This document shows positions 585-28,027 of a DNA stretch of 64,000 bases, in pieces; position 1 is the stretch's first letter; each line of letters begins with the position of its first letter. The notes below the pieces were generated by a model. The model was not told the DNA's origin. It ran no database searches and saw nothing but the letters and a program-made list of their open reading frames with translations. The DNA is from a virus (Duplodnaviria; Caudoviricetes), in IMG/VR virus record IMGVR_UViG_2667527664_000002, positions 15,911-79,910 of that record; one strand, written 5' to 3'. Position numbers and translations under genes: made by a program.

Positions 585-609
585 TTAACTTCACTCCCTA
601 TTATTTATA

Positions 610-1646: not shown

Positions 1647-1650
1647 AATA

Positions 1651-2013: not shown

Positions 2014-2067
2014 ATAAAACCTCCAAATAAAAAAAGAAAGCGAGATAGCTTCCTTTTTTATCTTTTA

Positions 2068-2877: not shown

Positions 2878-2928
2878 GTCATAGCACCTCCAGTTTATAT
2901 TATAACCTAAAAGGTAATATTTGGAAAT

Positions 2929-3552: not shown

Positions 3553-3630
3553 TTAATCCCTCATTTCTTAAAAAATAGCTAAAAAAACGACCTTTTTAAA
3601 TCGATTCTAAGGTGTTTCAAAAACTTTAAT

Positions 3631-3670
3631 AGACTAATAATACCTTGTAATTTCAACGTATTATTAGTCT
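3631..3670. repeat. 13-bp perfect inverted repeat downstream of the major capsid gene
   Basis: AGACTAATAATAC-N14-GTATTATTAGTCT. Confidence 0.8.
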
Positions 3671-3696
3671 GAAATATTTTTTACTTTAATTTTTTA

Positions 3697-4851: not shown

Positions 4852-4903
4852 TTTTATTCCTCACTTTTTTATATATTTTTGGATTTTGGCAATAAAAAAA
4901 GAT

Positions 4904-5749
4904 TTAGTATAAATCTAAATCATTTAATAAATCTTCCTTTTCTTTTTCAATTGTATTTTCTACTTTTTTATCATCTTCTTTTTGATTCTGTAGATGTAAA
5001 AGTACTTTATTTGCAATTTCTTCTATATCTAGGCTTTGATTTTCATCACTTTTTTTATTTTCTTTAAATAAGTTTTTAGGAGTATTTTTATATTTATCTA
5101 AAAACTCTGATGAACAAGCTACTAATTCAAATTCATCCTCAACTTTTATATTAAATAGTTCCGCTGCACTTTCTCCAGTAAACCACTTTTCTTCATCCAT
5201 TAAGGCCGACAATTCTTCTTTAGTAACTCCTTCTTTTGCATTTTCCATATAAATATTTAGTATGCTTTCTTTGCAACTATCCAATGTACTAGCAATTTTC
5301 CTTAGGTCTGATGCATTATATGAGTTCCATAGCATACATAAAGGATTATGAATCATAAAGCTAGCATATTTAGGTACTATAACTTCATCTCCTGCAAGTG
5401 CTATTACACTAGCTATACTTGCTGCTAATCCATCAACATGAACAGTCTTTTTACCTTTATGTCTCTTTAGCATACTATAAATTGCTATTCCACCAAATAC
5501 AGATCCACCGCCAGAATTGATATATATATCTACATTTTGTGAATTCTCTAGTTCTTTTAGGAAGTCACTTACATCTTGAGGGCATTTATCTTCGTCTGCC
5601 CACCAGCTACTCCAACTGTCTGAAACTATATCTCCATAGAAATAAAGCTCTGCTTTTTCTTCTGTTTGATTTTTTATTTCTATCTTACCAACATTTTTTA
5701 ATTCTCCAGTTTTAGTATCTTTATTTTGTAAATTTAATATTTTATTCAC
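4904..5749 (-). CDS. ClpP-like prohead protease
   Basis: INSGGGSV, DGLAASIASVI and MIHNP motifs. Confidence 0.95.
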   Translation of the reverse strand: MNKILNLQNKDTKTGELKNVGKIEIKNQTEEKAELYFYGDIVSDSWSSWWADEDKCPQDVSDFLKELENSQNVDIYINSGGGSVFGGIAIYSMLKRHKGKKTVHVDGLAASIASVIALAGDEVIVPKYASFMIHNPLCMLWNSYNASDLRKIASTLDSCKESILNIYMENAKEGVTKEELSALMDEEKWFTGESAAELFNIKVEDEFELVACSSEFLDKYKNTPKNLFKENKKSDENQSLDIEEIANKVLLHLQNQKEDDKKVENTIEKEKEDLLNDLDLY

Positions 5750-7004
5750 TGTTTTCGCCTCCTTTCGAATATTGCTTTCCTACATCTGTGATAGGTATAT
5801 AGTTACCATTACAAATTAATATGTCTCCACCTTCTATTGCTGGCATATCTAAAATATCTCTAGCATTATTTGGAGTGTATATAGCATTATTTACAAAGGA
5901 TGTTAAGCACTCTGCCTGTGTCTTTGCATCTGTTCGTAAAATAGCTTTTTCATTGAATTTATAATACTTATTTTCATTTTTCTCTTCATCACTTAATAAT
6001 TTGTAGCAAATTTCCTCTTCATATTGTTTCAATATAAATTGTTCTGTATCTACATAAAAGCTAAGTTGTTGCATCTCTCCACTTGAATAACTAGATTTTT
6101 CATAGTTATTTATTTGGTTTGGCTTTATTCCAAATGCTCCTGCTATTTGAAGTGATGAAAATTTCTTTAATTCATAAAATTGGCTATCTGTTAGCTTTAT
6201 ATTTAAAGGTGTTATTTTCATACCTAATGGTATAGGAATTATTTTACCTGCATTGTCTGAACCATTAGCAAACCTTGAAATACCTTCTATTAATTTATCT
6301 TCTTTTGACTTATCTAAATCACCTGTATATTCCAATGTAGCCTTTGCAGTAAGTCCTGTTTTGTAAAGGTTATTAATGAAGTTTTGACTTTCAACTCCAC
6401 CCTCAAGTGTATATTTTAAAATTTTACTAACTGGCTCACCTAATATACCATCAAATGTAAATGAGGTTTTAAAGTGTAGCACTTCTTCATTTTTAAATAC
6501 AAATTGTTCTCCTGTGTATCTATCAGTATAGATATACCAAAGTGCATCCTTAATTCCAAAGATTCCTTTATTGTCCATAATAACTTGTACATCATTACTT
6601 GGCATAATCCATAAATCTTTTATTTCATATGTAGCTCCATATTTTTCACGCTTAAATTCTTTTCGTATATAAACATAAGCATTTCCAAAGTGATTTCTAT
6701 TGTTCTCTACAGTTGCCCAAAATATGGAGGGTGTCATATAAGGGTTAGGTCTAACCTTTAATAAATTATATGCTTTATTTGGTGCTGCTCTTATTACACC
6801 TTTTTCTGTTTCTTGATACATTTTAATAGGCATTTTACCTAATGTCTCAGATAACATTTTTAAGCAAGTAAAATAAGTAACTTCACTTAATATATTTTTA
6901 TTTCTAGTTGTTATACCTAGCCACTCTAATAACTTTTCACTTCTCATATCAACAGTTTGTGGTTTAGGCATTATTAGATTTTTTAAACTTTTTATAAGGT
7001 TCAT
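5742..7004 (-). CDS. Portal protein, HK97 family
   Basis: RPNPYMT, GNAYVYI, DSQFYE and IAGAFGI motifs. Confidence 0.95.
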   Translation of the reverse strand: MNLIKSLKNLIMPKPQTVDMRSEKLLEWLGITTRNKNILSEVTYFTCLKMLSETLGKMPIKMYQETEKGVIRAAPNKAYNLLKVRPNPYMTPSIFWATVENNRNHFGNAYVYIRKEFKREKYGATYEIKDLWIMPSNDVQVIMDNKGIFGIKDALWYIYTDRYTGEQFVFKNEEVLHFKTSFTFDGILGEPVSKILKYTLEGGVESQNFINNLYKTGLTAKATLEYTGDLDKSKEDKLIEGISRFANGSDNAGKIIPIPLGMKITPLNIKLTDSQFYELKKFSSLQIAGAFGIKPNQINNYEKSSYSSGEMQQLSFYVDTEQFILKQYEEEICYKLLSDEEKNENKYYKFNEKAILRTDAKTQAECLTSFVNNAIYTPNNARDILDMPAIEGGDILICNGNYIPITDVGKQYSKGGENSE

Positions 7005-7019
7005 TTTTACACCTCCCTT

Positions 7020-8741
7020 CTAATTCCATCCCATCATATCTAGATACTTATCAACTGATTCATTTACATTTACTAATCTTTCTTCTTTAAATGCTAACTT
7101 ATATGCATCTATAATAGAATCTATTGGGTCTATTCTTTTATTTCTTCTATCTTTATCTATCTTAATTTCTCCATTTGGATTAGATACAGTTTTTGCATTT
7201 AAGGCTGACCATGAAAGTAACTCATTTTCTTTGTTATACTCAATATTTTTCGCTCTAACCTCAAGTTCAAAGTCCTCAGTAGGATCATTAAGCCATTTGT
7301 GAGTTTGATAAATTTCTATACAATCAAATCCTAATTCTGATAAATCACTTAAAAAAGCATCTGCATTGTGGGGATCATAGCCTAACTGTTCAATTTTAAG
7401 GTCGTATTTTTCAATAAGATCATTTAAATATTTAATTATATATTTATAGTCAGTTTTAATACCTCCTAAAGTTTCTGTAACTGTCAATAATTCATCTTTA
7501 ATCCATAAATTATATGGTGCATCGTCACTTTTGATATGTTCCTCTACTTTCATTTTTGGTATAAAACTATGAGAATGAATATAATACTTCTTAACCCCAT
7601 CAACATAATATACAAACACCAATGCTATTGAAGTTAAGTCTCCTCCGGAACTTAAGTCTAATCCTGCATAACATTTTTGACCCCTAAAATCTTCTAGAGT
7701 TCTTTCACTTTCGCATTCCTTCCAAAACTTAGGCTTTATATATTGGTCATCTGTAAATTGAATCCATATATTTAACGCCTTTGTTAGAAAATCTCTTAAA
7801 TCATCTCCACCCATATCTCTTGCAGAATCTCCTACTCTTTTTAAATTTTCAAGATCTTCTGCATCTTTACATACTAGTGGATTAGCTTTTATCCAATTTT
7901 TAGAGTTCCAAATATCATCTTCTTCATCCATTTCAGCTATATACACAAATTGAGCATCATTAGTAAATACATTTTCTAAAATGTTTTTACAGTATTCATA
8001 CAGCTTAAAACAAGGACAGTTTAATTCAAATCCAGCAGTAGTTATTACTGAAATTAAACACTGTTTCATTTTTCTTGTACCACCCTCAAGCAACTTATAC
8101 ATTTGATTGTTCTTATGGGCGTGATATTCATCGACTATACCCAGCAACGGTCTAAAACCATCTATTGATTTTGTATCTCTTCCTAATGCTCTTATTATAG
8201 AATTAGTATTTAAAGCTATTATTGTATTATCATGTTCCTTAACCTTAAAAAACTCTGATAGATCTTCATCAGAGTTAATAAACTTAATCATTTCATTTAA
8301 TACTATTTTAGCTTGATCTGATTTAGTAGCCGTACAATATAGTTGTCCATATTTATAACCACTAAAAGCCCCATAATATGTACCTAAAATACCATTTAAA
8401 AATGATTTTCCATTTTGTCTACCAAGCTGAACATACGATGTTCTAAATCTCCTATAGCTAGTATCTTTTGTAACCCATCCATTTAGGCATCCTAATATGA
8501 ATACTTGAAATCCTTCTAAATTTACAGGAATTTCTTCCTCTCCCTCTGCTATTATAAGTGTTTCTGCAAAATCTAAAATATCATTTGCCTTTTCTATATC
8601 AAACTCATACTTATATGAATCTAATTTAGACTTCTCTAAATCCTCTAAATGTCTTTTACATGCTAGGATTGCGGGTCTTCCAGCTATAATTTTTCCTTCT
8701 ACTACATCTACCGCATATTGAGTAACCCTATCTAAATTCAC
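7020..8741 (-). CDS. terL: Terminase large subunit
   Basis: GRQNGKS Walker A, VDEYHAH Walker B, GLDLS nuclease motif, RIDP. Confidence 0.95.
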   Translation of the reverse strand: MNLDRVTQYAVDVVEGKIIAGRPAILACKRHLEDLEKSKLDSYKYEFDIEKANDILDFAETLIIAEGEEEIPVNLEGFQVFILGCLNGWVTKDTSYRRFRTSYVQLGRQNGKSFLNGILGTYYGAFSGYKYGQLYCTATKSDQAKIVLNEMIKFINSDEDLSEFFKVKEHDNTIIALNTNSIIRALGRDTKSIDGFRPLLGIVDEYHAHKNNQMYKLLEGGTRKMKQCLISVITTAGFELNCPCFKLYEYCKNILENVFTNDAQFVYIAEMDEEDDIWNSKNWIKANPLVCKDAEDLENLKRVGDSARDMGGDDLRDFLTKALNIWIQFTDDQYIKPKFWKECESERTLEDFRGQKCYAGLDLSSGGDLTSIALVFVYYVDGVKKYYIHSHSFIPKMKVEEHIKSDDAPYNLWIKDELLTVTETLGGIKTDYKYIIKYLNDLIEKYDLKIEQLGYDPHNADAFLSDLSELGFDCIEIYQTHKWLNDPTEDFELEVRAKNIEYNKENELLSWSALNAKTVSNPNGEIKIDKDRRNKRIDPIDSIIDAYKLAFKEERLVNVNESVDKYLDMMGWN

Positions 8742-8754
8742 ATAAAATCACCCC

Positions 8755-9216
8755 CTATTTTGCAAACTTAGAAAACTTGTTTTTCTTTTCATCTGTACTT
8801 GGTTTAGGTATAACCAATCTGCATCTGCTAGATATAGTTAACCCCATATCTGAAGCAAAGCTTCTGCATTGTTTAATATGTCTATCTTCAATTATTGATA
8901 GTTTATTATATTCTTCAAAATCTTCCTGTGGATCTAATGAGTCTAATTTAAGAGCTACCTTTACATATCTACTATAAGCTTTTATATATGTAGCTAATGA
9001 GTTGCAATCTACATTACCCATTATGCCTATATCTTTTAGCTCTTTTGATATCTTTTTAAACTGTTTTTTCTCTTCTTTTGTTAAGTGATTAGGAGGTTTT
9101 ATTTTATCTGAATTTGCTTTCACTTCTGTACTTTTTCTTTGCTCAATCTCAGCTTTTGTAAGGTGTTTCTTACCATTTGCTACTACTAATTCAATTGGTT
9201 GTTTTTTGCCTGCCAC
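8755..9216 (-). CDS. terS: Terminase small subunit, P27 family
   Basis: KPPNHL and MGLTISSRCRL motifs. Confidence 0.9.
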   Translation of the reverse strand: MAGKKQPIELVVANGKKHLTKAEIEQRKSTEVKANSDKIKPPNHLTKEEKKQFKKISKELKDIGIMGNVDCNSLATYIKAYSRYVKVALKLDSLDPQEDFEEYNKLSIIEDRHIKQCRSFASDMGLTISSRCRLVIPKPSTDEKKNKFSKFAK

Positions 9217-9249
9217 CTTATTTTCCCTCCTATCCTGTTCAAATTTTTC

Positions 9250-9330
9250 AGTGGGGAGTTTCCGCGGAAAAAAACTGCAACCGTGGACTTAGGGCAAAAG
9301 CCAAAAACTTTTTGACTACCCCCCTACCCT
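9250..9330. other. Probable cos region
   Basis: GC-rich intergenic segment (GGGGGTAG...CCACGGTTGCAG...CCGCGG) between HNH and terS, the usual position in HK97-like phages. Confidence 0.5.
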
Positions 9331-9744
9331 TTAGTAATTTTCTTTTATCAATTCTTTTAGTTCATTTTGCATCTTAACTTTAGATGCTTCTCCTTTATCG
9401 TACATTCTATGTACCTTGTTATGACACCTGTCTCATAAGCATATAAGGTTATTCATATTTAATCTCTTGCTCCAGCAATCTTTTAAAGTCTCTATATGAT
9501 GTACTACATCACTTAAGTTATCATCACATAACTTACATATACCATCATCTCTTTGCCTTACAGAATCTCTAGTAAACTTCCATTCTTTACTACAATAAAA
9601 TTTCTGTTCTTTAAAATCTACTCTTCGCTTTCTATAATCCTTGTATACTTTCTGTTGTCTATTATTAAATTTAGCTTCACATTCAGAACACATAGAAATT
9701 TCTTGGGGAATAATTTTCCCACATCTACAAAACTTCTTTAGCAT
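9331..9744 (-). pseudogene. Terminase-associated HNH endonuclease with in-frame TGA at 9433-9435
   Basis: Reads ...VHHI...NLICL*DRCHNKVH...KENY. The stop sits where the first Cys of the second CxxC is expected, and the frame continues to TAA at 9331. Confidence 0.85.
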
Positions 9745-9863
9745 ATCTAATTCCTCATTTATCAATTTTCAATTTAAACAATACTTTGTTTCATATCATC
9801 ATCTAAATCATTTACTCCTACAAAATAAAAAAGAACCCTTTTAAAGAGTTCTTTTTTTGTTTA

Positions 9864-10544
9864 CTATTTTTTTATTGGTTCATTGAAAGAAGGTGGGTTA
9901 ATATCCATCTTTGTATTATGATTGTTAGGTCCCGGACTAGATAAGTCAAAGTATAGTTTAGAATCTTCAGTAACTCCAAAGTCTCTATTTGAACCTGTAT
10001 CTTTAATCTTATTTAATGCATCTCTAAATAAAGCATTATGAGCTTCTTCTCTGTTAAGTAAGAAGTCTATTGTTTCTCTTACGTATTTATCTTCAATTTG
10101 TCTATATAAGTATTCATATACAACTTTTGCTCTTTGCTCTGATGCTATATTTGATAATAGATCTGCAACTAAGTCTCCTGTTACAGTAACATAATCAGCA
10201 GTCCAAGGTGCTCCTGAAGAGTTTATTAAAAATGGTGATAATCCACTTAATACATGAGTTTCTATTTCTCCAGAATCAACTGCTTGGTAGTCAACATCAT
10301 GTCCATTTAATAAATTTATTGTTTGAGCAACCATTTCCATATGGCTAAGTTCTTCCGCTGCTATATCTAGAAATAAGTCTTTTATCTCTTTATCTTTTAT
10401 TCTAAAACTTTGAGATAAATATTGCATTGCTGCTTTTAGCTCTCCATTTGCCCCTCCTAATTGTTCTTGCATTAAAACTGCATATTGAGGGTTTGGTCTT
10501 TCTACTTTTACTTCTCTAAACAATTTTTTATCGTGTTTAAACAT
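9864..10544 (-). CDS. Manganese catalase (CotJC/YdbD-like family)
   Basis: EQLGG..GEL.AAMQY, EELSH and REEAH motifs. Confidence 0.95.
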   Translation of the reverse strand: MFKHDKKLFREVKVERPNPQYAVLMQEQLGGANGELKAAMQYLSQSFRIKDKEIKDLFLDIAAEELSHMEMVAQTINLLNGHDVDYQAVDSGEIETHVLSGLSPFLINSSGAPWTADYVTVTGDLVADLLSNIASEQRAKVVYEYLYRQIEDKYVRETIDFLLNREEAHNALFRDALNKIKDTGSNRDFGVTEDSKLYFDLSSPGPNNHNTKMDINPPSFNEPIKK

Positions 10545-10575
10545 CAGCTATACCTCCAAAATTATAATTAGTAAT

Positions 10576-10605
10576 TATAATTTCCCTTAAGCTTTAGTAA
10601 TATAC
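10576..10605 (-). promoter_or_regulatory. Putative sigF (forespore) promoter of the Mn-catalase
   Basis: GTATA-N15-GGAAATTATA matches GYATA-N15-GGNNANNNTW. Confidence 0.5.
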
Positions 10606-10656
10606 AAATTTTTCTATAATTTATCATACTTTCAAGTTATTTATAAACCCTACCTT

Positions 10657-10800
10657 ATGAACATAACATATCTAATAGTGTGTTATATTCATTTTATCAA
10701 CTTATATACCCACTGTAGACTTAGTATTTACAATGATTTCAACCTTTATTTTTTCTAAGTAAAATAAACCAATATAACATTCTCTTTTTATGTTATATTC
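10657..10800. repeat. Two related inverted-repeat sites next to the tyrosine recombinase
   Basis: ATGAACATAACAT-N10-GTGTTATATTCAT (10657-10692) and AATATAACAT-N9-ATGTTATATT (10771-10799). Confidence 0.75.
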
Positions 10801-10814
10801 TAGATAAAATTAAA

Positions 10815-11363
10815 TTAAAAATATCTAAAGCTCTTATAAGCTTTATTCATTCTGTCTTGGTCTATACCTATATAATGCAAGGTTACAGCTGGAGATGAAT
10901 GATTAAATATCTTCTGAAGTAATGCTATATCTTTGGTTTGCTTATAGTAATGATATCCCCATGTTTTTCTCATACTATGAGTTCCTAAACAAGGAACATC
11001 AAATAGTTCTCCCAACTCTTTTAAAATCACATATGCCCTTTCTCTAGAGATAGGCCTATTATAGTTTTTACGTGATTTAATTAAAAAATCATCAGGATCC
11101 TTGTCCTCTACATAATCTTTAATTGCTCTTTTCAGTATTGGGTTTATCTCTATGAATTTTTGTTTCCCTGTTTTCTTTTCTCTTAAGACTATTTGCCTTT
11201 TATCTTTTACATCATATATTCTAAACTTTAATATATCGGATACTCTAAGACCTGTATATATACCCATCATAAATAGAAGGTAGTCTCTTTCATTTGTCTT
11301 TTTTAAATATGAACACATATTTTCTAATGTATCTAAATTTCTAATAGGTTCTACATAGTTCAT
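10815..11363 (-). CDS. Small tyrosine recombinase (catalytic domain only)
   Basis: TGLRVSD, K, HSMRKT, FNH and T..Y catalytic residues. Confidence 0.95.
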   Translation of the reverse strand: MNYVEPIRNLDTLENMCSYLKKTNERDYLLFMMGIYTGLRVSDILKFRIYDVKDKRQIVLREKKTGKQKFIEINPILKRAIKDYVEDKDPDDFLIKSRKNYNRPISRERAYVILKELGELFDVPCLGTHSMRKTWGYHYYKQTKDIALLQKIFNHSSPAVTLHYIGIDQDRMNKAYKSFRYF

Positions 11364-11410
11364 ATCTCACCACCCTAGATTTTATTTACCTAAAATACTA
11401 TAAATAAAAT

Positions 11411-11443
11411 AAAAAAGCCAGGTGAGAAAGTCCTGACTTTTTT
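11411..11443. terminator. Intrinsic terminator (identical copy at 52793-52825)
   Basis: AAAAAAGCCAGG-TGAGAAAGT-CCTGACTTTTTT. Confidence 0.7.
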
Positions 11444-11537
11444 GAACGTAATAAGTTGTTGCTAATAAATCTAATAAATGTAACTAGTTTATACTCCATA
11501 CCGCTACAGAGTGCTCTTAAGAGCCGTAAAGTTATAT

Positions 11538-11610
11538 TGGTGAGGGTTAAAAGGAATCGAACCTCTTATCTTCTAAATAAATAGCTATTTTGCCATTAAA
11601 CTATATCCTC
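11538..11610 (-). ncRNA. tRNA-like element with degenerate anticodon arm (copy 1)
   Basis: GAGGATA TA GTTTAATGGCAAAAT A GCTATTTATTTAGAAGAT AAGAGG TTCGATT CCTTTT AACCCTC A CCA: D-arm, T-loop and CCA intact; acceptor stem 5/7 paired. Confidence 0.75.
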
Positions 11611-11746
11611 ACGTTGCTAGGGTAAGTTTATACCCTAGCTATTATATAAAGAGGGGGTTATTAGGAAATAAGCAATTGGGTTATTTTAAATTTCCTATAC
11701 TACTATATTACCACCTCTGAATGTATAAAAAATCTTTACTTTGTCG

Positions 11747-12250
11747 CTAAAATGTAGCCAAAGTGTTGGCTTTGCTATTATTTTCATTAAATAATGGTAG
11801 TTCTTCATAATTTGGATACAACATACCCATAATTTTATAAACTAATCGCTCTCTTACTGTGTAGCAATGACTGCGATCCATGTGTAGCTTAAGGCTTATA
11901 TATTTCATATTATTTTTATTTTTGCTATTATAAAATAATTCAAAGAAATTAGTTTCATTAACATCTAAGCAACTTAATGAGTTTTCTATTTTCGCTTTCT
12001 CTATTTCTTTTTCTAATTTACTTTGCATCAATTTATCTATTTTCTTCTCTTTATCTATAACCTCTTTTTCAACAATTCTAGAAATATTATAAGTTTCACT
12101 TGTTCTTTCATCATAATTTATAGCTCCACAACCTCTATATCTCATTTTCTCTTTCTTTATATCTAATTCTATATTATTTATTTGAGCTTCTAGAAACTTA
12201 TAATTATGCAATCTTAATTCTACTTTTTTAAATAATTCTTTTTTATCCAT
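11747..12250 (-). CDS. Late transcriptional activator (ArpU/RinA-like)
   Basis: Typical N-terminus, C-terminal sigma4-like HTH, position upstream of late genes. Confidence 0.75.
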   Translation of the reverse strand: MDKKELFKKVELRLHNYKFLEAQINNIELDIKKEKMRYRGCGAINYDERTSETYNISRIVEKEVIDKEKKIDKLMQSKLEKEIEKAKIENSLSCLDVNETNFFELFYNSKNKNNMKYISLKLHMDRSHCYTVRERLVYKIMGMLYPNYEELPLFNENNSKANTLATF

Positions 12251-12274
12251 AGGCAGTCACTTCCCGTTTTTCTT

Positions 12275-12532
12275 TTAATCAATAATATCTTTCATTTCCT
12301 CTAGACATTTTTCACATATAAAAATATTTTTGATGTTTTTTAAATTCTCTTTTGATCCACATAAAATACACGAGTTATTATGTTTTTTAAGCTTAATAAT
12401 TCCATTTTCACATAATATTTCAACCGGATCATTTTCATTTATATTTAACATTTTTCTAAATTCCTTTGGTATTACGATTCTTCCTAGTGAATCGATATTT
12501 CTTACAATGCCTTTATTATTTTTGCCATTCAT
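12275..12532 (-). CDS. AbrB/SpoVT-family regulator with C-terminal CxxC...CxxC
   Basis: GIVRNIDSLGRIVIPKEFR; CILCG...ICEKC. Confidence 0.9.
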   Translation of the reverse strand: MNGKNNKGIVRNIDSLGRIVIPKEFRKMLNINENDPVEILCENGIIKLKKHNNSCILCGSKENLKNIKNIFICEKCLEEMKDIID

Positions 12533-12913
12533 ACTATCACTCCTAACATATTTCTAACAATTTCTATCAATAAAACTACCTATATAAATATATTTATCAT
12601 ATAAGGTAACCCTTGTATATCTATATGATTAATTATTATATACCCTTATTCTTAATTTTTACTTAATTAAAATAAATTTTATATAAACTTTCATAATAAA
12701 TTTAAATTTTATATTTAAATTTACTGAGTTTTTGAATATTTTTTAATAAATAGACAAATAATAAAATTGACATTTGAAGATATCAATAGATTTTACCCTT
12801 TAACAGTTTAAATGCAGTTTATTTAGACCATTTTCAAAATTTAACTCTCAATATCCAATTTCCAAAAGGACTAGTTAACTCTAGTCCTTTTTAACTCTAA
12901 ATAAAAAATATTT

Positions 12914-13012
12914 TCAACTTATACCTATACTAGCAAATAGCTTAAAACAAATTAAAATTGTAATAGCTATAACTATAGCAATTAATATAAATAGTTTGTC
13001 TCTATTTTTCAT
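12914..13012 (-). CDS. 32-aa single-TM peptide
   Basis: MKNRDKLFILIAIVIAITILICFKLFASIGIS; GGTGG RBS; terminator hairpin at ~12863-12892. Confidence 0.45.
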   Translation of the reverse strand: MKNRDKLFILIAIVIAITILICFKLFASIGIS

Positions 13013-13055
13013 ATTTTCCACCACCTATAACTTATCTTTCTTTTAATCTATAAAT

Positions 13056-13286
13056 TTATTCATCCTTATTTCCACCTCTGATCCCCCAAGCACTCATTAT
13101 TTTATCTGCACTTTCTGGAAACCTTAGCTTTCCATTGATCTCTTTACCACATATACATTGTGCCAGTGCCATATAATTTGGATATGTTTTATAGTCACTT
13201 GCTTTAAAGAATGTTTCTTTTACACTGGGTATACTAAGTCCTATTTCAACATACTTTAACTCTGTTGATTTACTCATTTTTATCAC
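13056..13286 (-). CDS. Hypothetical phage protein (homolog at 55121..55315)
   Basis: Shared KETFFK.SDYKTYPNYMALAQCICG. Confidence 0.7.
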   Translation of the reverse strand: MIKMSKSTELKYVEIGLSIPSVKETFFKASDYKTYPNYMALAQCICGKEINGKLRFPESADKIMSAWGIRGGNKDE

Positions 13287-13815
13287 CCCTTATTTTATAC
13301 TCAAGTTTATATCTCTTTCTAAAAAGTCTTTTAGCTTCTATTGCTTGATTTAAATTACCTCTGCTAGCATTTAAGTAATCACATGCTTTATTAACACTAT
13401 CAAACTCTATAGTCTCATTTTTCAATTTATCTATAACTATCAACGGCTTTCTTTCAACTTCTCTTATAGTTTCTAAAGCTTGTATCCTAAATCTTTTTCT
13501 AAATAATCTATTGTGCTTTATATAAGTTGTTATATCTGCCCTTCTCATATCTAGAAATTTACAACAATCATCTAATCCATCAAACTCCATTTCTTTCTCT
13601 TCTACTTCATCTACTACCTTAACTTTATAATTATAATTCTGTTTAGGTTTAATATTTCTATAATGTCCTCCCTTATCATCTTTAGGATCATCAAGTACTA
13701 TATGTTTAATAGCTTTTCCTATACTTAAACTTGGATTTAATATACAAGCTAATAAAGCAAGATAGTTATCTGTAAAATCAAAATCACAAGAATTAGAATA
13801 TTTCACTCTAATCAC
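13270..13815 (-). CDS. DNA-binding protein with two NUMOD1-like repeats
   Basis: EFD....C.FL repeats; N-terminus shared with 55838..56203. Confidence 0.6.
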   Translation of the reverse strand: MIRVKYSNSCDFDFTDNYLALLACILNPSLSIGKAIKHIVLDDPKDDKGGHYRNIKPKQNYNYKVKVVDEVEEKEMEFDGLDDCCKFLDMRRADITTYIKHNRLFRKRFRIQALETIREVERKPLIVIDKLKNETIEFDSVNKACDYLNASRGNLNQAIEAKRLFRKRYKLEYKIRGDKNE

Positions 13816-13977
13816 CCCTATTTAGTTTTTTTTGTTTTATATTTAAATCTATAAATAATAATCTAATTTCTTTCTTATTATTTAAAATATGACATATTCT
13901 TAGTAATCCATTTTTTTATTTTAGATAAACTTTTATAATATATTCTGAATTTATAGTTTTTCCTCTACACATAATAA

Positions 13978-14454
13978 TTGTATAAAGGAGGTGAATATAT
14001 GTTTATAAAGAAATTAAGCATTATATTTTCAATTGTATTAATTCTATTTACAATAAATATAAATACAACATATGCATTTAATTCTCTAGCTCCACATCCA
14101 ATTCAAAACGAATATATTAAAGAATTAGAAATAATAGATAATTATATGTATTTATTGGTACAATCTGTTGCTACAAAAAAGATTGATCCTACTAAAGCCA
14201 ATAAAGATATTACATTTATAGAAACATTAATCGATAGTCTAACTAATAAAACTTCAATGCTTTCTAAAAAAGATAATGATGTTATCCTATCTATGCAAGT
14301 CATATTAAACTATTACAAAATTTCTATAATAAATATAAAGGTTTATATAGATAAAAATGATGCTGATAGATTAATAGATTCTATAACTTCTTTTTCTTTA
14401 GGTTATAACTCTTCATCAACCTTAAGAGGTATTATAGGAAAAGCGAAACAATAA
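13978..14454 (+). CDS. Secreted moron protein (likely start 13999)
   Basis: Signal peptide ending TYA; opposite strand to neighbours; AAGGAGG RBS. Confidence 0.7.
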   Translation: MYKGGEYMFIKKLSIIFSIVLILFTININTTYAFNSLAPHPIQNEYIKELEIIDNYMYLLVQSVATKKIDPTKANKDITFIETLIDSLTNKTSMLSKKDNDVILSMQVILNYYKISIINIKVYIDKNDADRLIDSITSFSLGYNSSSTLRGIIGKAKQ

Positions 14455-14527
14455 GTTCTCGCTTTTCTTATATAAATTACAAACTCATCTCTACTAGGTA
14501 TTTTTTATCCTAACCTTAAAGATAAAC

Positions 14528-14710
14528 TTACCAAACTCTATATTCTCTTTTGAATACCTCTAAAGCTTCTAACCATGCTTCTTGTTCTGTTATACCTCTA
14601 TCTTTTGCTATCTGCTTTGCTATGTCTCTAAGAATCTTAGCTGCTTCTATTATTCCCATAGTTTCTATCACTCCTAATTTCCTTTTTTTGAACTTAACTT
14701 GTCTTTGCAT
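14528..14710 (-). CDS. Small hypothetical phage protein
   Basis: ORF in early operon. Confidence 0.5.
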   Translation of the reverse strand: MQRQVKFKKRKLGVIETMGIIEAAKILRDIAKQIAKDRGITEQEAWLEALEVFKREYRVW

Positions 14711-15357
14711 ATTTTATGTATATACTTCCAATATCCCTCGCTGCCTTTTGGTGATTTAATTGTTCCATCTTCAACAGATATATCTACTGCTAAAACTATA
14801 CTTTTTAGTTCACTATCAGATAATTTATACATACCTTTTATACTATTCAAATCTGTGGATAAATTTACACTATTTACTCTATCAATAGATATAGTATTAG
14901 GATATGGTAATAGGGTCTTTTGTTCGGGATTTAAATCCGTACCGTAAGGATTTATATCCGTACCCTCGGGATTTATTTCCGATAGCTTCGGATTTAAATC
15001 CGATGTCCTATAGTTAGTATCTATTAATAATTTATAGTTTCTACCTAGAGCATAATAAGAATATGTCCCTCCTATTTTTACTGTTTTATGTTTTAATATT
15101 CCTATCTTACACATTTTCTTTAGTCTTCTATAAACTGTATCTTTTTTCATCTTTGTAATAGGTATATCCTCTGTTACACCATCATACTTAATCCAATAAT
15201 ACTTATCATCTGAAATGATCTTTGATATCATTCTTTCACTATCTTTAAATTTTACAAACCATTTTAGTATCAACAGATCTCTATCATCTAATTCAAGTTC
15301 TATTGCTTTTTCTTGGCTAAATCCATGTATGCTATACTCCAAGAAACTCACCCCCAC
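14674..15357 (-). CDS. Replication initiator (wHTH)
   Basis: N-terminal wHTH; internal DNA iterons. Confidence 0.8.
   Translation of the reverse strand: MGVSFLEYSIHGFSQEKAIELELDDRDLLILKWFVKFKDSERMISKIISDDKYYWIKYDGVTEDIPITKMKKDTVYRRLKKMCKIGILKHKTVKIGGTYSYYALGRNYKLLIDTNYRTSDLNPKLSEINPEGTDINPYGTDLNPEQKTLLPYPNTISIDRVNSVNLSTDLNSIKGMYKLSDSELKSIVLAVDISVEDGTIKSPKGSEGYWKYIHKICKDKLSSKKGN
14925..15002. repeat. Replication origin iterons (4 x 21 bp)
   Basis: GGATTTA(A/T)(A/T)TCCG at 14927, 14948, 14969 and 14990. Confidence 0.8.
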
Positions 15358-15658
15358 TTTATTTAAATCTATTAATTTATAAGTTTTTACTTGTAGTTAT
15401 ATCTATCTACATATATAATTAAATTGGAATTTTTTATTTGGGTCCTCCTGGACTCTTTTTTTATTTTTATTAAATTAATGTTATGAAATACTGTGTTTAA
15501 CAATCTTGCTTGTCCTCTTTTTGCTTATTATATGCTTTTAATTCATCAAATTTATTATCTAGTTCTTGTCCTAAATAACTATATTTTTTCATAAAACTTT
15601 GAAGTATTTTTATACTCATTTAACTCACTCCTTGTACAAATTTTCATTGCCAAAGAGC

Positions 15659-15925
15659 CTAAGCTCCTTGTTTATCGTTATATTCTTTAATCGCTATTTC
15701 TTTAGCTTCTTCATAACTCAAACCAGTTTCTTCTAACTCCTTTGTTCTAATCCATATTGGGTAAGCTATACTCAATGCTTCATCCCCATATTTTTCTCTT
15801 TGTCTATCAAGTATCCATTTAGCTTTTCTTCTTTCTATTTCCTCAATCCAATATGGATCTTCTGGGTAAACTACCTCAACTTTTATTTCTCTGCTTTTTC
15901 TTGGTGCCATTGCAACCACCCCCAC
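15659..15925 (-). CDS. Hypothetical early protein
   Basis: ORF with RBS downstream of the antirepressor. Confidence 0.6.
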   Translation of the reverse strand: MGVVAMAPRKSREIKVEVVYPEDPYWIEEIERRKAKWILDRQREKYGDEALSIAYPIWIRTKELEETGLSYEEAKEIAIKEYNDKQGA

Positions 15926-20473: not shown

Positions 20474-22075
20474 GTGATAATATTGATTGCTGCAATATAT
20501 TCAAGAAAATCAAAATTTACTGGAAAAGGTGAATCTATAGAAAATCAAATACAACTTTGCATGGACTATGCTAAGAACCTAGGAATAAATGAATTTTTAG
20601 TATACGAAGATGAAGGTTTTTCTGGTAAATCTATGGATAGACCAAAGTTTAAAGAAATGCTTAAAGATGCTAAAGATAAAAAGTTTGATTATTTAATATG
20701 TTATAGGCTAGATAGAATATCCCGTAATGTTTCTGACTTCTCTACTCTTATAGAAGATCTAAATAAGCTTAATATATCTTTCGTATCAATTAAAGAACAA
20801 TTTGATACTAGTACTCCTATGGGACGTGCTATGATGTATATATCATCTGTATTCGCTCAGTTAGAACGAGAAACTATAGCTGAACGTGTTAGAGATAATA
20901 TGTATGAGTTAGCTAGAACTGGAAGATGGCTAGGAGGTATGCCTCCATATGGTTTTATTAGTACTCAAATTAACTACTATGATGAAAATATGAACCAAAG
21001 AAAAATGTATAAACTTAAAGTTGATGAGGATACAATAGAAATTGTTAAATTGATATTTGATAAATATTTAGAGCTTAGATCACTTTCAAAGCTTTATAAA
21101 TATATGTATGAGAATGGGATTAAAGGAAGTCGTGGAGGTAACCTTGATCCTAGTGCCTTATCTTTAATCCTAAAAAATCCAGCATATGTTAAAGCTGATA
21201 AAAGTGTAGTTGATTATCTAAGAAAGTTTAATATAGATGTTATGGGAGATATAGACAATATACATGGTATCCTAACTTATGCTAAAAATACAGATAGTCC
21301 TATAGCTGCTGTTGCTAAACATAAAGGTGTTATAGACTCGAATAAATGGATTGAAGCACAAAGGCTACTTAATGCAAATAAGGCTAAAGCTCCTAGAGCT
21401 GGAACTGGAAGTAAGGCATTATTATCAGGTCTTTTAAAATGTTCTAAGTGTGGCTCTAATATGAGAATTACTTATAAAAACTCTAAAAGCGGCACTATTT
21501 ATTATTACATATGTGGAACAAAGAAATCTTTAGGAGTATCAGCTTGCGATTGTAGAAATATCAGATCTGATAAGGCTGAATCTAAAGTTATAGATGAATT
21601 AAAAAATAAAAGTATTAAATCTATAATGTCAAGTTATAAAGATAGCAAGTTAGAAAACTCTAAGAATAGTAAAAATATAAAAACTGAGATAAACTCAATA
21701 AATAATCAAATTAAAGAAAAGGAAACATACATTGATAATTTAGTTATGCAATTAGCCAAGGTTACCGAAAGCTCTGCATCTACTTTTATAATCAATAAAT
21801 TAGAATCTTTAAATAATGACTTATCTAATTTAAAATCACAATTAGAATCTTTAAATACTATGTCTATGGAAAATAAGCAAGTTGATATTAATATAAATAT
21901 GCTTATAGATAATTTAAATAAATTCAATAAAGAAATTGATACCTCTGACATCAATAAGAAGAGACTGTTACTATCTACAGTAGTAGATTACATGACATGG
22001 GACTCTGATACAGACACAATAAAAGTAAACCTAATAGGTATCAATCCAAGCAATACTATAACTTCAGATAAATAG
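20474..22075 (+). CDS. Large serine recombinase (integrase of prophage 1)
   Basis: YSRKS catalytic Ser, DRISR, recombinase domain, C..CG zinc ribbon, coiled coil. Confidence 0.95.
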   Translation: MIILIAAIYSRKSKFTGKGESIENQIQLCMDYAKNLGINEFLVYEDEGFSGKSMDRPKFKEMLKDAKDKKFDYLICYRLDRISRNVSDFSTLIEDLNKLNISFVSIKEQFDTSTPMGRAMMYISSVFAQLERETIAERVRDNMYELARTGRWLGGMPPYGFISTQINYYDENMNQRKMYKLKVDEDTIEIVKLIFDKYLELRSLSKLYKYMYENGIKGSRGGNLDPSALSLILKNPAYVKADKSVVDYLRKFNIDVMGDIDNIHGILTYAKNTDSPIAAVAKHKGVIDSNKWIEAQRLLNANKAKAPRAGTGSKALLSGLLKCSKCGSNMRITYKNSKSGTIYYYICGTKKSLGVSACDCRNIRSDKAESKVIDELKNKSIKSIMSSYKDSKLENSKNSKNIKTEINSINNQIKEKETYIDNLVMQLAKVTESSASTFIINKLESLNNDLSNLKSQLESLNTMSMENKQVDININMLIDNLNKFNKEIDTSDINKKRLLLSTVVDYMTWDSDTDTIKVNLIGINPSNTITSDK

Positions 22076-22099
22076 GAACTTTAATACATTTATCTGAAG
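22062..22099. other. att junction of prophage 1
   Basis: Switch to host ATPase frame near 22088; inverted repeat CTTCAGATAAAT-N14-ATTTATCTGAAG. Confidence 0.7.
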
Positions 22100-22281
22100 C
22101 TATTTCTATGTCAGATAAGGTCGCAGTTTTATCCAAACGTCCTGCATCTATAAAAAGTATCTATAATATAGATTTAAAAATATCAGAAACTAGAACTCCT
22201 ATAATATCAAGAAGTGCTGAAAATTTTAAAGACTATTTTAATATCTTGTGGAAGGAGATTGATTCTAGTGAAACAAAATAA
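22088..22281 (+). pseudogene. ytlC: 3' part of interrupted NitT/TauT ABC ATPase
   Basis: LSEAISMSDKVAVLSKRPASIK...YFNILWKEIDSSETK* is the post-H-loop segment (THD-L-SEA); overlaps the permease start. Confidence 0.85.
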
Positions 22282-23071
22282 TGTATCACAAGGTCATAAA
22301 CAATATTTAAAATTGCTAAAAAAAGAAAAGAATCTAATCTTTTTTTATCAAATATTTATATTGGTTGGATTTATAGCTCTTTGGGAATTACTTGCTAGAC
22401 TTAATATAATAGATGTATTTCTATTTAGCAAACCTAGTGATATTTACAATCTTTTTATAAAATATATTCAAAATGGAGAATTATTTAAGCATATATTAAT
22501 ATCTAGCTATGAGACAATAGTTGGATTAGCAGTTGGTACAATTCTTGGAATATTAGTAGCTATAATGCTTTGGTGGTCAGAAAGATTGTCTAAAATACTT
22601 GATCCATTTTTGGTTGTACTAAATGCACTTCCTAAAACAGCATTAGCACCAATTTTAATAGTTTGGGCTGGAGCTGGTGTAAATGGAATAATAGTTATAG
22701 CTATTACTATATCTGTTGTTGTTACTATATTATCCGCCTATAATTATTTTATAAGTGTTGATGAGGAAAAAGTCAAAATGCTTAAAAGTTTTGGAGCATC
22801 AAAACTTCAAATTCTTACAAAATTAATATTTCCTTCTAACATAGGAAATTTAATAAATTTAACTAAAATTAATATAGGTATGGCTTGGGTTGGCGTAATA
22901 GTAGGTGAATTCTTAGTATCTAGATATGGTCTTGGGTACTTAATAGTTTATGGTGGCCAAGTTTTCAAATTAGATTTAGTAATGATGGGAGTAATAGTAT
23001 TAGCCCTTTGTGCTTTAATTATGTATCAAGTTTTAAATATAGCAGAAAAAATTTATAAAAGTAAAAGATAA
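22268..23071 (+). CDS. ytlD: NitT/TauT ABC transporter permease
   Basis: LNALPKTALAP and AWVGVIVGEFLVS..GLGY motifs; GTG start after AAGGAG. Confidence 0.9.
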   Translation: MKQNNVSQGHKQYLKLLKKEKNLIFFYQIFILVGFIALWELLARLNIIDVFLFSKPSDIYNLFIKYIQNGELFKHILISSYETIVGLAVGTILGILVAIMLWWSERLSKILDPFLVVLNALPKTALAPILIVWAGAGVNGIIVIAITISVVVTILSAYNYFISVDEEKVKMLKSFGASKLQILTKLIFPSNIGNLINLTKINIGMAWVGVIVGEFLVSRYGLGYLIVYGGQVFKLDLVMMGVIVLALCALIMYQVLNIAEKIYKSKR

Positions 23072-23086
23072 AATTTAATATAAAAA

Positions 23087-23138
23087 CAAAATAACTGAGT
23101 TCAAGTTTGTTATAAACAGGCTTGAGCTCAGTTATTTT
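23087..23138. terminator. Bidirectional terminator
   Basis: AAAATAACTGAG...CTCAGTTATTTT between convergent genes. Confidence 0.75.
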
Positions 23139-23951
23139 TTATATATTACAATATCCTATTATTTCATAATCTGTTGGTATGTCATAATTTCTATTACCGT
23201 TTTCTAAAATCCATTTTAAATCAAACATAGTTGTATCAATTATTAATGAAAAGTATAGCATAACTATCCCTACATCAACTTTACCTTCATACTCACTTGC
23301 AAATTCATCTTTTCTTACTGCAAGAATCACTTTGCCTCCATCAATTATAAATCTCCAAGGTTGTCTATTTAATGTAGATGGTGCCATTCTAGCAAAACTA
23401 AATGCATCTAATAATCCTCTTTCTTCTAATAATTCTATGGTTGCATTTTCTCCCCATTTATCTAGATAAACTATCTTTTCTACTCCTAATCTAGATGAAT
23501 CACCAGTAGCTGATTTAGTTTTTACAGTATCTCCATAACCTAGTGCAATAATTGCTGTAACTTCCTTATCTGATAAAATTTCAAGCTTTTCTTTTATAAG
23601 TGAACTCTCTTTAAAGGTAACCCAACATGAGTCGATTCCTAAGTCCATGGCCTTTAGAGTTAAGTTTTCTCCTATATATCCTGAATTTTCTATGTATCCT
23701 TTATATGTATCAGATAAAATGATTACATAGTTTGGTGCTTCTATCATATGTCCATTATATCCTGCTATTTTATCAAGTTTTGGATATAATTTATCTTTAT
23801 TAAAAACTTTAACTTCAGTACTTATTTCTGGTACAAGTTTTTTAGACATATTTATATATTCTTCTATTATTCTGAAATCTGATTTTTTTATTTCTTGATT
23901 TTTAAATTTCCTTACTGACCTTTTATTGGATATAAGATATTTGTAATTCAT
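23139..23951 (-). CDS. Nitroreductase family protein
   Basis: RSVRKF, LGIDSCWV and APSTLNRQPWRF motifs. Confidence 0.9.
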   Translation of the reverse strand: MNYKYLISNKRSVRKFKNQEIKKSDFRIIEEYINMSKKLVPEISTEVKVFNKDKLYPKLDKIAGYNGHMIEAPNYVIILSDTYKGYIENSGYIGENLTLKAMDLGIDSCWVTFKESSLIKEKLEILSDKEVTAIIALGYGDTVKTKSATGDSSRLGVEKIVYLDKWGENATIELLEERGLLDAFSFARMAPSTLNRQPWRFIIDGGKVILAVRKDEFASEYEGKVDVGIVMLYFSLIIDTTMFDLKWILENGNRNYDIPTDYEIIGYCNI

Positions 23952-24122
23952 AATTTCCCCTCCCTAAAGTTATATTAAATTTTATTTTATATTTTTTATA
24001 CCCAAAACCAACATAAAGCAAACATTTTCCCGGTAAATATAGTATTTTTACAAATATCTAAAATAGTTTTATCACCAATCAATTTATTTTTTAATAATAT
24101 ACATTATCTTTAATTTCAAGGG

Positions 24123-24680
24123 GTGATTTTTTTGCTAAAAAAATTAATAATATTAATAACTTTAATTACTAGCCTATCTTTGCTTCTCATTGGATGTACT
24201 CCTAAATCTAAAAGTATTAAATCTAAAAATTTAACTAAGCTAACTGTTGCAGAGGTAACCCATTCGGTATTTTATGCTCCACAATATGCAGCTATAACTC
24301 AAGGTTTTTTTGAGGAAGAAGGTATTGAGTTAGACCTTATAAATACTCAGGGAGCAGATAAAACAATGGCTGCACTTCTTTCTGGAGAAGCAGATATAGG
24401 ACTTATGGGACCAGAAGCATCTATTTATGTGTATAATAAAGGGAATTCAAATTATGCAGTAAATTTTGCGCAATTAACTCAAAAAGATGGAAGCTTTTTA
24501 GTTACTCGTGAAAATACTGATAGTTTTTCTTTTGAGGATTTAAAAGGTAAAGAGGTTTTAGGTGGTAGAAAAGGTGGGGTTCCTGAAATGACATTAGAGT
24601 ATGTTATGAAAAAAAATGGTCTAACTATAGGAACTGATACTCAAAACGATAAAGTAAACGTTAGAACCGATATTCAATAA
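24123..24680 (+). pseudogene. ytlA: 5' part of interrupted ABC substrate-binding lipoprotein
   Basis: Lipobox; VAEVTHSVFYAPQY, NFAQLTQKDG and GGRKGG motifs. Stops at 185 aa (VRTDIQ*), whereas the family is ~330 aa. Confidence 0.85.
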
Positions 24681-24686
24681 TCAGTT
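24665..24686. other. att junction of prophage 2
   Basis: Imperfect dyad AACCGAT...ATCAGTT centred on CA at 24675-24676, exactly at the truncation point. Confidence 0.7.
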
Positions 24687-24790
24687 TTATGATAGCAGTT
24701 AATATTTTTAATACATAAAAAATAAAAAGTAAGATAGTGTAAACAACTACCTTACTTTTTATTTTATCATAACATTTAATCAATATTAAA

Positions 24791-26410: not shown

Positions 26411-26887
26411 ATGAGTATTATGAAAAACGTTAGAAAAACTTTTGTTTTAGCATTGGTAGGTATCACGATATCTACACCTATTCTAGGAACTGTATATGCA
26501 GCAGAAGAATCAATTAATAGTTCAAATATAGTTCAAAAACAATCAACTACAGATTTAGATGAAATTTCGAATTACTTTGGTTTGACGTATAAAGAAAAAA
26601 GACAATTAAGTCAAGCTATAAATGATTACAAATTAGAAACTGAAAATACGATACAACCTAGAGGTAAAATAAGTTGGATATCAAAAGCAGTTAGAAAAAT
26701 CTGGAGAAAATTACCCTTTAAAGTAAGACAAACTATAACTGCATATGTAGGATTAGAATCGTTTTTAAATGCTATAGACCACTATACAGGTACAGTAGAA
26801 AATGTAATATATAAAGCTTGTAAAAAAGTAGGGATGAACAATGATGTTGCTTGGTGGGTAACAAAAACAATTACTTTGTTTATATAG
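26411..26887 (+). CDS. Putative Sec-exported pre-pro-bacteriocin
   Basis: Signal peptide (VYA|A), acidic pro-region ending IQPR, cationic amphipathic Trp-rich C-terminus. Confidence 0.55.
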   Translation: MSIMKNVRKTFVLALVGITISTPILGTVYAAEESINSSNIVQKQSTTDLDEISNYFGLTYKEKRQLSQAINDYKLETENTIQPRGKISWISKAVRKIWRKLPFKVRQTITAYVGLESFLNAIDHYTGTVENVIYKACKKVGMNNDVAWWVTKTITLFI

Positions 26888-27838: not shown

Positions 27839-28027
27839 ATGTGTAGCTTTAAAGGATTATATTCATTTGCAGAGGCAACTAAATTATGGGGGTTAAAAGA
27901 TTCTACACTAAGAAAGGCAGTTGAAACTGGAAAATTAATAGCTGATGAAGATTGTAAAAAGTTTGGTAGAGATTGGGTTGTAAAAGAAAGTGCAATGGTT
28001 AGAGAATATGGAGAAAAAAAGGAATAA
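27839..28027 (+). CDS. Small HTH protein
   Basis: SFAEATKLWGLKDSTLRKA...KFGRDW (excisionase/MerR-like wHTH). Confidence 0.8.
   Translation: MCSFKGLYSFAEATKLWGLKDSTLRKAVETGKLIADEDCKKFGRDWVVKESAMVREYGEKKE

Follow-up and report, generated by a model that had tools for sequence, protein, structure and literature searches.

We analysed a 64,000-base stretch of DNA, referred to below as the window, which spans bases 15,911-79,910 of the 79,910-base virus (provirus) record IMGVR_UViG_2667527664_000002 and has a GC content of 22-33%. The window contains two prophages separated by an island of host-derived DNA of only about 2.6 kb (22096-24678), in which lie the remains of an operon for an ATP-binding cassette (ABC) transporter: the 3' fragment of the ATPase gene, the permease gene and the 5' fragment of the gene for the substrate-binding protein. 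Two phages, each with its own large serine recombinase (Int1 and Int2), occupy two dedicated bacterial attachment (attB) sites in this one operon. The initial annotation, made from the sequence alone, had proposed that two serine-integrase prophages split two subunits of one transporter, and the domain matches, the gene fragments and the modules recognized with PHROGs all agree with this proposal. The permease matches counterparts in a Paraclostridium metagenome-assembled genome (89% identity), in P. bifermentans (88%) and in Clostridioides difficile (73%), which indicates that the host is a Paraclostridium/Paeniclostridium-like member of the Peptostreptococcaceae.

The uninterrupted reference operon of Paeniclostridium hominis (locus L006) comprises the ATPase gene (a frame of 256 residues, for a 250-residue protein), an overlapping permease gene, a nitroreductase-family gene on the opposite strand and the binding-protein gene (a frame of 349 residues, for a 345-residue protein). 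Judged from its domains, the operon encodes a NitT/TauT-type ABC importer formed by an ATPase, a permease and an SsuA/NMT1-type binding lipoprotein, of the ytlC, ytlD and ytlA type respectively; the matches to the NCBIfam SaoA, SsuC and SsuA families all fall under the equivalog cut-offs. These ytl names follow the 'ytlC' annotation of the C. difficile gene CD1927 and the list of conserved genes in PMC3416734, not an alignment to Bacillus subtilis sequences. In B. subtilis the function of the ytl transporter is listed as unknown (PMC11466899). The ytlD-type permease gene of the window (22214-23071, + strand; 285 residues, BPD_transp_1, E-value 5e-23) is intact, as had been noted initially. The nitroreductase-family gene (23139-23951, - strand; TM1586_NiRdase, 2e-36) had been overlooked; it stands outside the transporter, and in loci L003 and L007 it is missing and the binding-protein gene directly follows the permease gene. 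By this comparison, its insertion between these two genes is specific to the lineage.

Int1 (20474-22075, + strand) has 533 residues and matches the Pfam domains Resolvase (1e-40), Recombinase and Zn_ribbon_recom. Large serine recombinases carry an N-terminal catalytic serine motif, Y-x-R-x-S, which reads IYSRKSK in Int1. When the L006 ATPase was searched against the whole record with tblastn, the only match covered residues 194-256 of 256 (84% identity, E-value 6e-31), an open frame at 22090-22281 (+ strand). The ytlC-type ATPase gene is thus broken directly after its VTHD (H-loop) motif, and its last 63 codons remain beside Int1. The end of prophage 1 had been placed at 22088. Similarity to uninterrupted operons does begin at this base, and the location within the ATPase gene, after VTHD, stands, but the crossover core is found about 8 bases further to the right. 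This attR core of prophage 1, GAAGCTAT (22096-22103), falls in the E-A-I codons of ..THDISEAIS.., 20 bases after the stop codon of Int1. The window itself gives one junction per att site; we set the core by comparing the window junction with the attB of L006 and L010 and with the attL and attR of C. difficile, which share GAAGCAATA between inverted arms; in the C. difficile ATPase att sites these arms are GTTGCACTTTT and AAAAGTGCAAC.

Orthologues of Int1 with 58-67% identity lie directly ahead of the ATPase 3' fragment in the C. difficile and Romboutsia loci, and no Int1 above 67% identity was found in any family genome searched. The same Int1/ATPase junction was recovered from 17 of 18 viral-contig loci (96-99% identity), from one metagenome contig (98.3%) and from contigs of three of the four sequencing runs compared (X1, X4 and the RNA run X15; about 98-99%). 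Such recurrence shows that the junction is no assembly artefact. Run X2 (share 0.51) was rejected as a carrier of the locus, having matched by fragments of only 22-32 bases. Regions of the window that the runs leave uncovered were given no weight. Beside its contig with the Int1 junction, X15 holds a 524-base contig that matches the window only by its final 35 bases (22091-22125). The match begins where a rejoined ATPase gene would, which we take as a hint at most.

At the other end of the island, the 5' fragment of the ytlA-type binding-protein gene (24132-24680, + strand; NMT1, 3e-15) encodes residues 1-188 of about 345 of an SsuA/NMT1-type lipoprotein. Its start codon is TTG at 24132, and the junction itself creates a stop after VRTDIQ. 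The L006 binding-protein frame matches the record by residues 25-191 of 349, up to window position 24680 (tblastn, 84% identity). In 4 of 12 sister records the fragment seemed to be frameshifted, but this was dismissed, as the difference proved to be one in the length of a T-run upstream of the TTG start. The attL core of prophage 2 is CAAT (24675-24678), flanked by the imperfect inverted phage arms AACTGTTATCATgAAACTGAT and ATCAGTtTTATGATAgCAGTT; the dyad centre originally given, 24675-76, was right to within one base. A matching break with related phage arms is seen in L002, L003, L005, L016 and L017, mirror-image arms are seen at the attR of four relatives, and the phage-side arms are similar across all occupied loci. 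Two sequencing runs bear on the occupancy of this site: in X15 a contig continues past 24678 as QFNVMSGAFAG, which shows that a conspecific strain has the binding-protein gene intact, and in X4 a 9,407-base contig stops exactly at 24678.

Int2 (62471-64000, + strand) is a large serine recombinase of 509 residues with the Pfam domains Resolvase, Recombinase and Zn_ribbon_recom and the catalytic-serine motif IYLRKSR. It is complete, since both record and window end on its TAA codon (63998-64000). In four other species, orthologues of Int2 (79, 77, 70 and 56% identity) adjoin the 3' half of the binding-protein gene. Int1 and Int2 are 23.8% identical over 526 residues and are thus distant paralogues, not strictly unrelated as initially described. 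Their best matches in phage databases are at 48% (Int1) and 51% (Int2), in Terrisporobacter phages, and Int2 shares 42.6% identity with the PhiS63 phage integrase. Paralogues of the Int2 type (49-52%) are also present in C. difficile-group genomes, directly ahead of a sigma-70 region-4 fragment without a promoter of its own, which by gene order is the skinCd arrangement. In three Terrisporobacter-like genomes (L168, L160, L162), Int2-type recombinases (50-52%) are followed by a GH18 (chitinase-like) frame, which may be another split gene to judge from its position. Some GH18 proteins of spore formers are sporulation proteins.

Prophage 1 fills the window from 1 to 22095. These right-hand 22 kb extend leftwards through the preceding 15,910 bases of the record, and the left end lies outside it. 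PHROGs matches in the window cover major tail, connector, major head, protease, portal and both the large and small terminase subunits, together with an HNH protein, an anti-repressor, a CI-like repressor and an ImmA-like metalloprotease; open reading frames (ORFs) for the tape measure, tail and amidase are found in record bases 1-15,910. Prophage 2 (24679-64000, 39.3 kb) is apparently complete, with its attR just past the window, and has matches for amidase, holin, tail fibre, Dit, tape measure, head, scaffold, portal and terminase, as well as RecT/RecE, a DnaD-like protein, an anti-repressor, a repressor and a metalloprotease. On gene content, both elements are temperate siphovirus prophages with modules for packaging, head, tail, lysis, replication and lysogeny.

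The catalase, the AbrB homologues and the HNH protein had been put forward as hints of a link to sporulation. They turned out to be ordinary phage cargo according to PHROGs and Pfam. The manganese catalase of prophage 1 (9867-10544, - strand; Pfam Mn_catalase 1.5e-58, phrog_7573) belongs to the family that we take to be that of the spore-coat protein CotJC. A small AbrB/MazE-type protein is encoded in each prophage (12278-12532 and 53651-53920, both - strand), close upstream of a phrog_36 regulator with which the late genes begin; both phages share this module, which gives no sign of host sporulation control. Other cargo comprises a 182-residue tyrosine-recombinase-like ORF beside the HNH and terminase genes of prophage 1 (10818-11363, - strand) and a 674-residue NACHT/SNaCT5 protein in prophage 2 (50564-52585, - strand), which by its domains is probably NLR-like anti-phage defence cargo. 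Similar secreted or membrane proteins are found in the left-end cargo of both prophages (window 26411-26884, + strand, and record bases 2618-3163), and share the C-terminal sequence ..YKACKK.GMNN...WWVTKTITLF... Prophage 2 also encodes a small HTH_59 protein labelled 'excisionase' (27839-28027, + strand; phrog_2655 4e-23, HTH_59 6e-12), with homologues in the P. dentum remnant described below (82%) and in the Int1-type Romboutsia prophage (56%). As a directionality factor for Int2 it is a weak and unproven candidate: it occurs with an Int1-type prophage too and does not track Int2.

In order to determine how far the two insertion sites are shared by relatives of the host, we used the permease to retrieve 80 loci for comparison. 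Of these, 68 have a full-length ATPase gene, 5 have it cut by a contig end and 7 (four from C. difficile, one from Romboutsia and two from Tepidibacter) have an internal cut at residues 185-194. Two contig-end cuts in unrelated assemblies (L014 1-183 and L031 1-183) begin exactly at residue 196, which suggests that assembly broke off at an att site in an occupied or mixed state. In Tepidibacter (L093 9835-15718; L057/L059) the gene is cut at residues 185-192 in two species; the elements there carry several different serine recombinases, and no Int1 orthologue adjoins the 3' fragment. Fifty of the 80 loci contain the binding-protein gene: 43 have it at full length, 1 ends within it, and 6 have it broken at residue 190/191 (P. 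bifermentans, P. dentum, P. tenue, two C. difficile and Terrisporobacter mayombei). Both halves of this gene were found in all five genomes searched, about 8.8, 8.8, 19.4, 39 and 41.5 kb apart. The ATPase 5' half was likewise present in five of five genomes searched, free of stops in four, with a TAA in one match. At both sites, the halves in these relatives join in frame at the shared cores.

The initial annotation had called for a survey of related genomes for empty, single and double occupancy. At least 11 of 112 family genomes have an Int1-type recombinase immediately ahead of the ATPase 3' fragment, a count made up of 7 of 20 newly fetched matches (one in a genome already counted) and five earlier loci, with nine further matches left out. 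An Int2-type recombinase lies beside the split binding-protein gene in at least 12 of the 112, once in the opposite orientation, and both splits occur together in 6. The viral-contig collection includes 17 records with Int1 at 96-99% identity and 14 with an Int2-type recombinase at 84-99%. Eleven carry both, so that the double arrangement is common among isolates of the host species. In the open-access and bioRxiv literature we found no paper describing the two-prophage arrangement, nor the eut/ytlC island insertion or the binding-protein splits detailed below. The arrangement is not confined to the window, as it recurs in the 6 family genomes and 11 sister provirus records.

The occupants differ from one relative to another. 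At the ATPase site, Romboutsia has a prophage and C. difficile an 18.5-kb island whose only cargo besides the Int1-type recombinase is the ethanolamine-utilisation (eut) operon (L090 1-19901 in genome G006, also L015, L012, L016 and L017; CD1905, CD1907-26 and CD1927 in strain 630). No empty ATPase site was seen in the eight C. difficile-group genomes examined. At the binding-protein site, P. dentum has a 19-kb remnant related to prophage 2, and C. difficile an 8.8-kb island without phage genes that carries a recombinase, AraC-like and PadR-like regulators, a sigma/anti-sigma pair and an ABC exporter. From this distribution, both integrase/site pairs are old and recurrent across the Peptostreptococcaceae, and prophages, decayed prophages and non-phage islands have occupied them. 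A separate observation concerns the borders of the provirus records. In the window and in 14 close Int2-type loci among the 18 sister loci (L095-L112), the record stops at most 3 bases away from where the Int2 frame does. Gene calls thus set the borders, and the host stubs, namely the ATPase and binding-protein fragments and the permease, are classed as 'viral'. Such stubs may account for the presence of ytlC in lists of phage-borne sporulation genes (PMC10294663), and reports of 'sporulation genes in phages' call for caution to that extent.

We then asked how selection has acted on the split halves. The four C. difficile loci, which differ by 6-10% at the DNA level, all have the ATPase insertion. 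In the C. difficile-group loci, the ATPase 5' half has a ratio of non-synonymous to synonymous divergence (dN/dS) of 0.03 (2 non-synonymous versus 16 synonymous changes), the 63-codon 3' fragment one of 0-0.13 and the permease one of 0.02-0.03. Purifying selection also acts on the Int1-type recombinase (0.10-0.16) of the eut island, an element that lacks phage genes. The binding-protein 3' half lacks its own promoter; all 10 pairs formed by five genomes gave for it 0.015-0.048 at dS 0.27-0.79. Within the host species (the window and 12 records), neither the ATPase nor the binding-protein fragment contains a stop in any of the 13 copies, in line with the open frames initially reported for both visible halves. 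The corresponding within-species ratios (pN/pS), which are weak measures, are 0.14 for the ATPase fragment, 0.13 for the permease and 0.17 for the nitroreductase-family gene. The strong purifying selection to which the split halves are subject is most simply read as a sign that these genes are rebuilt and in use.

The association of the transporter with sporulation comes from published data and from promoter comparisons, which together bear out the initial statement that the ytl genes belong to the sigma-K regulon. Table 2 of PMC3416734 places ytlA, ytlC and ytlD in this regulon, among 147 'core sporulation genes' of spore-forming Bacilli and Clostridia. In C. difficile 630, CD1927 ('ytlC', fragment), CD1904 (permease) and CD1891 (binding-protein fragment, Part 1) are listed in the sigma-K regulon table of PMC3789822, whose text also names CD1891 among the sigma-K targets. 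In one supplementary table, the sigma-K mutant/parent ratios of the three genes are 0.08-0.13, and sigma-K transcription starts have been mapped for CD1927 and CD1891 (Saujet supplement). No promoter is assigned to CD1904 in PMC3789822; between this gene and the CD1927 promoter, about 20 kb upstream, lies the inserted island. In an independent RNA-seq study (PMC3738446), the sigma-K dependence of CD1904 appears as a log2 fold change of -3.9 in sigK, with -5.8 in sigE and -0.3 in sigG.

A CD1927-type promoter (GGTACAAA, 14-15 bases, TTAATAnTATAA) is present in all 19 Peptostreptococcaceae-type ATPase upstream regions compared, 6 of them from Paraclostridium/Paeniclostridium. In the window, we predict by positional homology a sigma-K-type promoter for the binding-protein gene at 24070-24108 (+ strand; ATCACC, 16 bases, AATAATATA): in an alignment of 23 sequences it coincides with the mapped promoter and start of CD1891, at equal distance to the ribosome-binding site. 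Both motifs fit what we take to be the sigma-K consensus (AC, 16-17 bases, CATAnnnTA). We infer that the operon is transcribed in this host from sigma-K, late mother-cell promoters. Control of the operon by a riboswitch was considered and rejected, as no Rfam riboswitch lies near the operon in L006 or L007; the sole Rfam matches, located elsewhere, are a glycine riboswitch and a group II intron.

Int1 recombines in codons that directly follow the ATPase H-loop, and Int2 halfway through the binding-protein gene. On this basis we propose a mechanism in which the lysogen would make no transporter: ATPase and binding protein would be truncated, and at least 38 kb of phage DNA would lie between the permease and the operon promoter. 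Precise excision by each recombinase, with a putative directionality factor, would rejoin each gene in frame. As each excision would rejoin one gene, the transporter would need both, an AND requirement. The most likely time would be sporulation, in the terminal mother cell, as for skin in sigK and SPbeta in spsM, and the spore's own chromosome would keep both prophages. We consider the chances about even that at least one of the elements undergoes such developmental, sporulation-timed excision. The full two-key switch, in which two independent excisions would restore a sigma-K-controlled importer in the mother cell alone, in Peptostreptococcaceae including C. difficile 630, is put forward tentatively. 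Two further elements of this proposal are possible rather than probable: that the recombinase lineages have co-evolved with the two fixed sites, one lineage being sister to the skin recombinases; and, held with equal reserve, that the C. difficile mother cell deletes eut while switching the transporter on, the keys in the window being two live phages instead.

Several observations weigh against the proposed developmental excision. No product of excision was detected for this host. The partner halves, the ATPase 5' half and the binding-protein 3' half, were not found in the 79,910-base record, nor was the ATPase 5' half found in any of the 10 sister provirus records searched. The permease match of locus L133 is split over two frames, and this permease may be frameshifted. 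Within the host species, the pN/pS of the binding-protein 5' fragment is 0.34 versus 0.13 for the permease. If the insertions were recent and independent, dN/dS would reflect the history of the genes before insertion, more so at the binding-protein site. Prophage 2 is variable, being absent from all three same-species runs that have the island, one of which has the intact binding-protein gene. No directionality factor was found. The initial annotation had pointed to small early ORFs as candidates, but none is common to islands and prophages, and at E-values up to 1e-4 the C. difficile islands and the two prophages share the recombinase alone. Directionality factors are described in PMC12286644 as lacking sequence conservation and synteny. 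The Int1 orthologue CD1905 does not appear in the sigma-factor tables (0 matches in the 12 of 16 files searched for each of two papers), and neither does CD1906 (0 matches in 16 of 16 files in one paper and in the 12 of 16 searched in PMC3738446). Finally, both prophages have an ordinary switch made of a CI-like repressor and an ImmA-like protease, and full lytic modules, so that induction outside sporulation would account for excision.

Much of this is what ordinary lysogeny with insertional inactivation predicts, in which a dispensable transporter is simply turned off in lysogens and excision takes place only upon induction or curing. The phages would then merely use conserved intragenic sites, which is common among serine-integrase phages. 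This explanation is a serious one, which we rate as quite possible although short of an even chance. It draws on the complete lytic and lysogeny modules of both prophages, on the failure to find a directionality factor or a sporulation promoter on the elements, on the absence of prophage 2 from the three runs and on the listing of the B. subtilis transporter as of unknown function; moreover, vegetatively silent genes would be safe landing sites even without excision. It does not readily explain why the halves stay open and purified in the C. difficile-group lineages that share the ATPase insertion, with the low dN/dS given above for the ATPase 5' half and the binding-protein 3' half, or why the recombinase of the phage-free eut island is maintained by selection. 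Also against it is the sigma-K dependence of CD1904, a gene that the island separates from the mapped sigma-K promoter.

An intermediate situation would be a single developmental lock, the Int1-type element, fixed in the C. difficile group and common throughout the host species, having become skin-like and prophage 2 being a recent, ordinary lysogen that inactivates the binding protein. The Int1 junction is present in all three same-species runs and in 17 provirus records while prophage 2 varies, and the C. difficile-group genomes offer no empty ATPase site. We nevertheless regard this as improbable, because the Int2-type site is equally recurrent in the family, the binding-protein 3' half has the lowest dN/dS of all the pieces and the closest paralogues of Int2 are the skinCd-type recombinases. 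Least of all do we favour halves that work without rejoining, the ATPase 5' part (about 195 residues) acting alone or with a separately translated 3' piece and the pieces as such being the target of selection: the break just past VTHD does leave the H-loop histidine and, as we read it, all nucleotide-binding motifs in the 5' part, and the halves contain no stops, but the 3' fragments have neither start codon nor ribosome-binding site of their own at the junction, and the binding protein is cut in mid-fold (residue 188 of 345) with a 3' half devoid of promoter and signal peptide, which makes this reading very unlikely.

If the two-key switch is correct, the transporter joins sigK, spsM, spoVFB, spoVR and gerE as genes rebuilt during sporulation, and provides the first case in which two different elements both have to leave for the sake of one protein complex. 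Since C. difficile 630 already has both splits (CD1927/CD1905-eut and CD1891), the question can be tested in a tractable model. The C. difficile eut operon is recast as cargo of a recombinase island. The locus also provides two recombinase families, with only 24% identity between them, whose natural att sites are both defined.

The arrangement can be compared with several known systems. The accessible text of a 2015 review of C. difficile mobile elements gives skinCd as the only sporulation-linked element and contains 0 mentions of ethanolamine. The skin element interrupts sigK and is excised in the mother cell, by SpoIVCA in B. subtilis and, for skinCd, by the recombinase CD1231 with the directionality factor CD1234 (PMC4191935, PMC4430133, PMC5025042). 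Like skin, the elements of the window are large serine recombinase elements in mother-cell sporulation genes, with the recombinase gene against one gene piece, and the Int2 paralogues sit in the same way as in skinCd beside their sigma-factor fragment. Unlike skin, the target is a transporter operon and not a sigma factor, two elements with two recombinases lie in one operon, and both are full prophages. In B. subtilis, SPbeta is excised from spsM by SprA with the directionality factor SprB, both for the lytic cycle and for reconstitution of the gene (PMC4191935, PMC5499854). Here too a complete prophage with a large serine recombinase splits a gene of the sigma-K stage of the mother cell; SPbeta, however, is one element in one gene, and its sprB has a sporulation promoter of which no equivalent was found in the window.

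PhiS63 of Clostridium perfringens is a functional siphovirus that resides in sigK and is excised precisely (PMC3442830). It resembles the present case in that a siphovirus serine integrase, related to Int2, inserts in a sporulation gene, and differs in its target and in being a single element. The gin element of Bacillus cereus ATCC 10987 (GirC/GirX) is a non-phage serine-recombinase element in the sigma-K-stage gene gerE, which sporulating cells restore (PMC5595907). The non-phage islands of 8.8 kb and 18.5 kb that C. difficile has at the two sites are similar to gin, while the elements of the window are prophages with other cargo and another target. The Listeria phages A118 and phi10403S in comK are a case of 'active lysogeny', where reversible excision switches a host gene; they involve one element, have no link to sporulation and act in a cell that is not terminal. 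Compared with skin, SPbeta, PhiS63 and gin, the present locus stands apart by its target, a transporter operon, by its two recombinase/site pairs and by a cargo that ranges from live phages to a metabolic operon.

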